From a virus (lineage: Duplodnaviria > Heunggongvirae > Uroviricota > Caudoviricetes), in IMG/VR virus record IMGVR_UViG_2859810971_000003: a stretch of DNA of 14,073 nucleotides; one strand, given 5' to 3'. Positions 2,112-2,447 of this stretch are shown in pieces. A program made the position numbers and the translations under genes. Numbering within the stretch: the first letter of the stretch is position 1; each line of letters begins with the position of its first letter. The notes under the pieces are model-generated. The model searched no databases. It saw only the letters and a program-made list of their open reading frames with translations, and was not told where the DNA came from.

Positions 2112-2447
2112 ATGAAGTGGATTGTGATTGATACAGTTATCCAGCCATCATGCGGAATATCTTTTTCAGTCATATGGAGTAAAATAAAATTAATAATCTG
2201 GTATCAATCGGATGCTTTCTTACCTCCTGAAAGTATATTTACACTGACTCACACAGGCATCATGCTCAATAACAAAGTGCTACCTGTAACCATTTACAAC
2301 GTAGTACCATTCAATAAAACATTCTGGAATTTAATCAAAAACAGCCAGGAATGCCCTACAAATACAGATAACGTATTGAATGAATGCTTTAATAACCGTT
2401 GCACTCTGCAAATATGTCCTTATGGACTAAAACAACAAAGTCCATAA
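2112..2447 (+). CDS. Hypothetical 111-aa protein, AT-rich orphan cargo gene, cysteine-rich C-terminus
   Basis: AAGGA ribosome-binding site 6 nt before the ATG. A 111-codon open frame in DNA of roughly 30% GC is unlikely by chance. Six ATA codons. Four Cys in the last 25 aa. No recognisable family. Confidence 0.45.

Follow-up and report, generated by a model that had tools for sequence, protein, structure and literature searches.

The closest described relatives of the gene treated here are two anti-adaptors of RssB in Escherichia coli. IraM of strain K-12 (b1160, PDB 8TWD) is induced by Mg2+ starvation and PhoP, and has been reported to have a PmrD-like fold. IraL is a distinct paralogue of IraM from the uropathogenic strain CFT073 (locus c1429, formerly ycgW), encoded in the potB island and about 59% identical to IraM. 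It raises both the level and the half-life of RpoS in exponential phase (PMC4045071). The protein co-purifies with RssB and, in two-hybrid assays, interacts via RssB's N-terminal receiver domain; the same study also described the distribution of iraL and gave the 5′-RACE end of its mRNA as ACATCACCAGCAAGGCATAAACAAGGAAACCA (PMC4045071). The iraL mRNA rises by 1.6 log2 upon a shift to 37 °C, and the IraL protein is increased in a fur mutant.

The two proteins are of a similar length class, IraL having four extra residues at its C-terminus, and have in common a PmrD-like N-terminal domain, a C-terminal tail with four cysteines (Cys4) and RssB as the target. PmrD itself, a connector protecting phospho-PmrA, is a more distant comparison. 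It shares with IraL the unusual beta-barrel and the logic of a small protein working on a receiver domain, while its identity to IraL is about 15%, it lacks the Cys4 tail and its target differs.

We analysed a stretch of 14,073 nucleotides of viral DNA (Caudoviricetes; IMG/VR record IMGVR_UViG_2859810971_000003), called the window below. An open reading frame on its plus strand, 2112..2447, is very probably iraL, encoding a small cytoplasmic RssB anti-adaptor of the IraM/IraL/RssC family, and we found nothing that contradicts this identification. A publication of 2014 already described the gene and its product, along with the target and the transcription start, so that this is a known gene and not an orphan.

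Identity and conservation of the reading frame

The frame runs from an ATG at 2112 to a TAA ending at 2447 and has 111 codons before the stop. The ATG is immediately preceded by an in-frame TAA at 2109, which makes the start unambiguous and excludes any upstream alternative. The ORF has a GC content of 34.5%, the region 1850..2480 one of 32% and the whole window one of 47.8%. The first-pass annotation had argued that an open frame of this length in such low-GC DNA is unlikely to arise by chance, and three results agree. A stop-free run of 112 codons has p ~2e-4 per frame start at the local base composition; comparison with iraM gives a dN/dS of 0.15 and comparison with a paralogue in Stx2 phages one of 0.12, which shows purifying selection on the frame; and 1446 of 5426 complete E. 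coli genomes carry an intact iraL CDS, 1157 of them at an identity of at least 99%. A megablast search with the region 1700..2900 matched 2640 of the complete E. coli genomes. Transcript and protein of iraL have both been detected (PMC4045071, PMC12890032, PMC7157518), and related prophages keep the frame undisrupted; these were the two points on which the ORF had been thought open to refutation.

The first reading of the sequence had recognised no family for the product, a statement that does not hold. The window ORF is identical to CFT073 IraL (WP_000871291.1) at 111 of 111 amino acids and 336 of 336 nucleotides, and is 62% identical in amino acids to K-12 IraM. It scores 162 bits against NCBIfam NF007393 (anti-adapter protein IraM), for which the curated cutoff is 121, and the match takes in protein residues 1-110 and profile positions 1-113 out of 114. 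In the PDB the top sequence match (E 9e-32) is chain A of 8TWD, which is IraM residues 1-78 in complex with RssB. Pfam hmmscan gave no match even at E<=10 for either the window ORF or K-12 IraM, and the identification therefore rests on the NCBIfam, PDB and fold searches; precomputed Pfam labels on family members in the protein collection read PF11183 (PmrD).

The RefSeq label on the matching frame is ‘anti-adapter protein IraM’, and PGAP/RefSeq gives the same name to WP_000871291.1, the IraL protein itself. Two functionally distinct paralogues are thus inseparable by annotation alone.

RssB-binding domain and cysteine tail

An AlphaFold2 model from a 49-sequence alignment divides the protein in two. 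Residues 1-78 (2112..2345) form a predicted RssB-binding domain, a PmrD-like beta-barrel plus helix, and residues 1-80 have a pLDDT of 84-96 per 10-residue block. The top Foldseek match of the model is 8twd_A, IraM with RssB, at E 1.4e-8, a target TM-score of 0.90 and an rmsd of 1.3 Å, in agreement with the fold reported for IraM. PmrD (4hn7) comes next at E 8e-4, and profile comparison of IraL with PmrD gives E 0.018.

To compare the binding surface we took the 14 RssB-contacting positions of IraM, grouped as clusters I-III (PMC10844676), of which cluster I faces the RssB receiver domain while clusters II and III face the C-terminal domain and the linker. Ten of the 14 residues are identical between IraL and IraM: 5/5 in cluster I, 3/5 in cluster II and 2/4 in cluster III. 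The four changes from IraM to IraL are all conservative: cluster II has T13S and L75I, cluster III has H63N and I64V. As read from the alignment, this pattern would fit the published binding of IraL to the N-domain of RssB only.

The likeness to PmrD raises the question of whether the protein could instead work as a connector in the manner of PmrD, with a different response regulator, such as PmrA, as its target in place of RssB. We regard this as very improbable. The Foldseek and profile matches to PmrD and the PF11183 labels on family members speak for it, but identity to PmrD is just 14-15%, the RssB-contacting residues of IraM are largely conserved, and both two-hybrid interaction and co-purification with RssB were reported for the identical protein (PMC4045071). 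We therefore keep to RssB as the target.

The remaining residues, 79-111 (2346..2444), make up a tail with the pattern C81-P-x9-C92-x4-C97-x4-C102-P-Y-G. Its cysteine codons are at 2352, 2385, 2400 and 2415; with residue 14 they account for all the cysteines of IraL. The C-x10-C-x4-C-x4-C spacing, pointed out on first reading as a possible zinc ribbon or disulfide-rich domain, is real, and its conservation is striking. An exhaustive profile search recovered full-length IraM/IraL members that fall into some 50 clusters at 50% identity, of which 45-49 were aligned; the named members that we looked up are from Salmonella, Citrobacter, Enterobacter, Cronobacter, Intestinirhabdus and Dryocola. Across the 45-49 diverse members W72 is conserved at 100% and C92 and P103 at 98%, with little or no variation at C81, C97 and C102. 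The four tail cysteines are the most conserved columns of the family, whose motif CP..C-x4-C-x4-CP(Y/F)G is present in IraL, and they are invariant in the Escherichia, Salmonella, Citrobacter, Enterobacter and Cronobacter homologues. Elsewhere the tail varies, the mean frequency of the top residue being 0.31.

The zinc-ribbon part of the suggestion, taken as a canonical zinc ribbon, finds no support. The tail has no CxxC knuckles and no Pfam match at E<=10, and its pLDDT is 49-66 with the 49-sequence alignment and about 40 with one of 16 sequences.

We found no solved structure that covers the tail of IraM or IraL. In the paper on the IraM-RssB structure, residues 79-107 were removed as proteolytically unstable, and the tail is described as less conserved and flexible, with no mention of zinc or of the tail cysteines. 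A search of the literature for zinc or cysteine roles in IraM and IraL returned nothing relevant. As a tentative idea, which we consider plausible but less probable than not, the tail may be a functional module in which Cys4 binds a metal (Zn or Fe-S) or senses redox state and so gates the stability or activity of IraL and IraM.

The cysteines also bear on the proposal that the ORF is an orphan zinc-ribbon or disulfide-rich protein serving as a toxin or phage-exclusion factor, for which toxicity and exclusion assays had been recommended. Their invariance would suit such a protein, as would the prophage site, the reverse orientation and the low GC content, which are found in many accessory defence genes. 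Against this, a characterised RssB anti-adaptor with the published function of stabilising RpoS has exactly this protein sequence; the PADLOC defence models returned 0 families at E<=1; knuckles and a Pfam zinc-ribbon match are both missing; structural disulfides are unlikely in a cytoplasmic protein; and iraL has been carried on plasmids with no toxicity reported (PMC4045071). There is hardly any room left for this proposal, and the anti-adaptor remains our reading of the gene.

The prophage cassette and the convergent sRNA

Read on its minus strand, the window shows a lambdoid prophage that is decayed and riddled with IS elements. Over 12,729 nt the window is 100% identical to GenBank CP026810.1; its IS load and pseudogenes resemble those of Shigella, which is no more than a lead. 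The antiterminator gene Q lies at 4464..5285 (-), in a region that also holds RusA and DUF968 genes. The stretch 3716..4346 (-) holds an IS200 tnpA ORF and a match to the STnc490 Hfq-binding RNA at 4223..4346 (RF01405, 146 bits), an insertion that separates Q from the tRNA genes here and in CFT073 alike. The predicted tRNA genes are a tRNA-Ile2-like gene with anticodon CAT at 3535..3610 (-), whose RefSeq equivalent is annotated tRNA-Ile, and a tRNA-Arg (TCT) at 3357..3433 (-). On the other side of iraL are a truncated fragment of a DUF1737 gene (-), with the last base of its start codon at 1853, and a holin gene of P21 type at 1208..1462 (-), truncated by an IS3-family element (1..992) that adjoins it, so that the first 44 of 64 profile positions are matched. 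The order Q, tRNAs, DUF3927, iraL, DUF1737, holin is common to the window and CFT073. The first-pass annotation had iraL running opposite to the phage late operon, and this is confirmed: the minus strand carries Q, both tRNAs, the DUF1737 fragment and the holin alike.

The early region of the prophage holds a Hok-family toxin ORF at 7534..7689 (-) and a ParE/RelB-type toxin-antitoxin pair at 7761..8048 and 8048..8287 (-), assigned from Pfam labels on the matching contig. Insertion sequences recur further right (a second IS3 copy and one of IS1), where ydeP, an acid-resistance gene, is also split into two frames; decay is evident at 1..1462, 8614..10013 and 11345..13622.

Six of the 13 isoleucine codons in iraL are ATA, the number counted on first reading, and the share is likewise about half in iraM (8/18) and in the Stx2-phage paralogue (7/14). 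A CAT-anticodon tRNA annotated as tRNA-Ile is a reader of AUA. With ATA-rich isoleucine usage and a phage CAT tRNA nearby, the phage tRNA might aid translation of iraL-type genes.

The gene sits in a low-GC cassette of about 627 bp (1854..2480), comprising an AT-rich upstream region, the promoter, the CDS and a short 3′ UTR. We delimited it by comparison with two collinear lambdoid prophages that have no iraL (one of them from O157:H7), to which homology stops at 1853 and resumes at 2480-2483, and by its GC content of 0.32 against about 0.48-0.50 in the flanks. It is placed between the STnc100 terminator, on the side of Q and the tRNAs, and the first gene before the lysis cassette. The iraL cassette is thus a discrete moron-like insertion in a lambdoid prophage, turned against the late transcript, which depends on Q. 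Of the features by which morons are known, discrete insertion and deviant composition are seen here, the promoter is documented in the literature, and the downstream hairpin belongs to STnc100. Like the phage morons bor and lom of lambda and stx, the cassette is a discrete low-GC insert with a probable promoter of its own, variably present in collinear prophages; unlike them, it faces against the late operon, borrows the hairpin of a neighbouring sRNA and has no canonical terminator.

STnc100 is a known prophage-associated sRNA. A member of its family lies at 2473..2660 (-), convergent with iraL, and matches Rfam RF02076 over the full length of the model (1-206 of 206) with 109.9 bits, a gathering score of 47 and E 1e-24. 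The ORF had been described as converging on a palindromic terminator at 2483..2507. A hairpin does exist there, at 2482..2503, with a 9-bp stem containing 7 G-C pairs, but by terminator scan and folding its T-run is on the minus strand only, and the plus strand 3′ of it reads GGAGAGUGG, with no U-tract. The hairpin and its T-run are the intrinsic terminator of STnc100 and not of iraL, and we assign the hairpin to the phage backbone because prophages without iraL carry it too. What iraL converges on is therefore the 3′ end of the neighbouring sRNA, and it has no canonical terminator of its own.

RefSeq has a ‘hypothetical protein, partial’ equivalent to 2518..2643 (+), antisense to STnc100, which is probably spurious.

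Promoter allele and RpoS control

Transcription of iraL is expected to start at A2079, the equivalent of the published 5′-RACE start; the published 5′ end of the mRNA, ACATCACCAGCAAGGCATAAACAAGGAAAC(C/T)A, matches the window from this position with one T/C difference near its end. The 5′ UTR is then 33 nt (2079..2111, +) and includes a Shine-Dalgarno sequence, AAGGA, at 2101..2105, the site that the first-pass annotation had placed 6 nt before the ATG. The likely -10 element is TATACT at 2066..2071 (+), 7 nt upstream of the mapped start and a 5/6 match to TATAAT; it was absent from the list returned by a generic promoter scan. Alignment with CFT073 and strain 042 suggests TTTAAT at 2046..2051 (+) as the likely -35 element.

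In this element the window differs from both strains by the loss of a C between 2049 and 2050, which changes TTTACA to TTTAAT and, as read from the sequence, reduces the best -35 candidate from 5/6 to 3/6 consensus matches. There are further SNPs in the leader relative to CFT073 at 2078 and 2108. The CFT073 gene thus has in common with the window copy an identical protein and CDS, the prophage slot, the orientation, the 5′ UTR and the -10; it differs in having neither the 1-nt deletion nor the two SNPs, and in lying at potB, whereas the window prophage is IS-disrupted and adjoins ydeP and safA.

The deletion allele was counted with a 46-nt query that can seed solely across the deletion, a 92-nt promoter query being unsuitable because other SNPs mask the allele (best identity 98.9%). 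It occurs in 166 of the 5426 E. coli genomes, about 11% of the iraL-positive ones, including JJ1886, where the copy with this allele encodes WP_000871291.1. The JJ1886 gene, iraL2, was noted earlier to have a mutation in the predicted -35, and its authors call the expression of such copies unknown (PMC4045071). With a 1-nt deletion in the likely -35, the expression level of the window copy is likewise uncertain, and the deletion may reduce it.

A refinement of the main reading takes this further, holding that the gene is iraL but the allele is transcriptionally weak or silent, a relic with little effect on RpoS. The drop in consensus matches favours it, together with the identical allele in JJ1886 and the IS-disrupted state of the surrounding prophage, which makes relaxed selection in this lineage possible. 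The CDS, though, is perfectly intact; the allele has been kept in 166 genomes with the protein unchanged; the -10, the start-site region and the ribosome-binding site are preserved; and the assignment of the -35 hexamer, with its 15-nt spacer, is itself uncertain. On balance we judge a weak or silent relic rather unlikely, though to be taken seriously.

The iraL and iraM loci showed no similarity outside the CDS, which is consistent with a different promoter and regulation. As iraM is activated by PhoP, we also considered a PhoP box upstream of iraL; the region has one isolated GGTTTA half-site, at 2044-2049, lacks a second one and does not resemble the iraM promoter, and a PhoP box was rejected.

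The expected action of the gene follows from what was published for the identical protein. IraL would bind the N-terminal receiver domain of RssB, a response-regulator-like adaptor; RssB so bound would be unable to deliver the stress sigma factor RpoS to the ClpXP protease, and RpoS would build up during exponential growth without a stress signal. In a lysogen a sigma-70 promoter of its own would drive iraL with no dependence on phage late transcription, which would make it a lysogenic-conversion gene that re-tunes the general stress response of the host.

A paralogue 74% identical to IraL, with the similarity extending over about 110 nt upstream, is found in Stx2a/Stx2c phages (e.g. LC567829, phage 2851). 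It occupies 5001..5324 of LC567829 and is present in about 40 other Stx2 phage records, many of which leave it unannotated. As with iraL, it directly precedes the same hairpin, runs against the late operon and has the tRNAs on one side and the lysis genes on the other; unlike iraL, it is immediately downstream of stx2B in the opposite orientation, with stx2AB in the same slot. We found no functional test of this paralogue in the literature.

The main value of the present analysis is negative, in that iraL can leave the list of orphans, and the residual points, the Cys4 tail, the promoter allele and the convergent sRNA, are modest. If the tentative view of the tail is true, the Cys4 module would be an unrecognised input to RpoS control. 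One late-region slot carries iraL here and, in Shiga-toxin phages, stx2 with an IraM-like paralogue, which suggests that temperate phages may repeatedly deliver RpoS-stabilising factors at this place.
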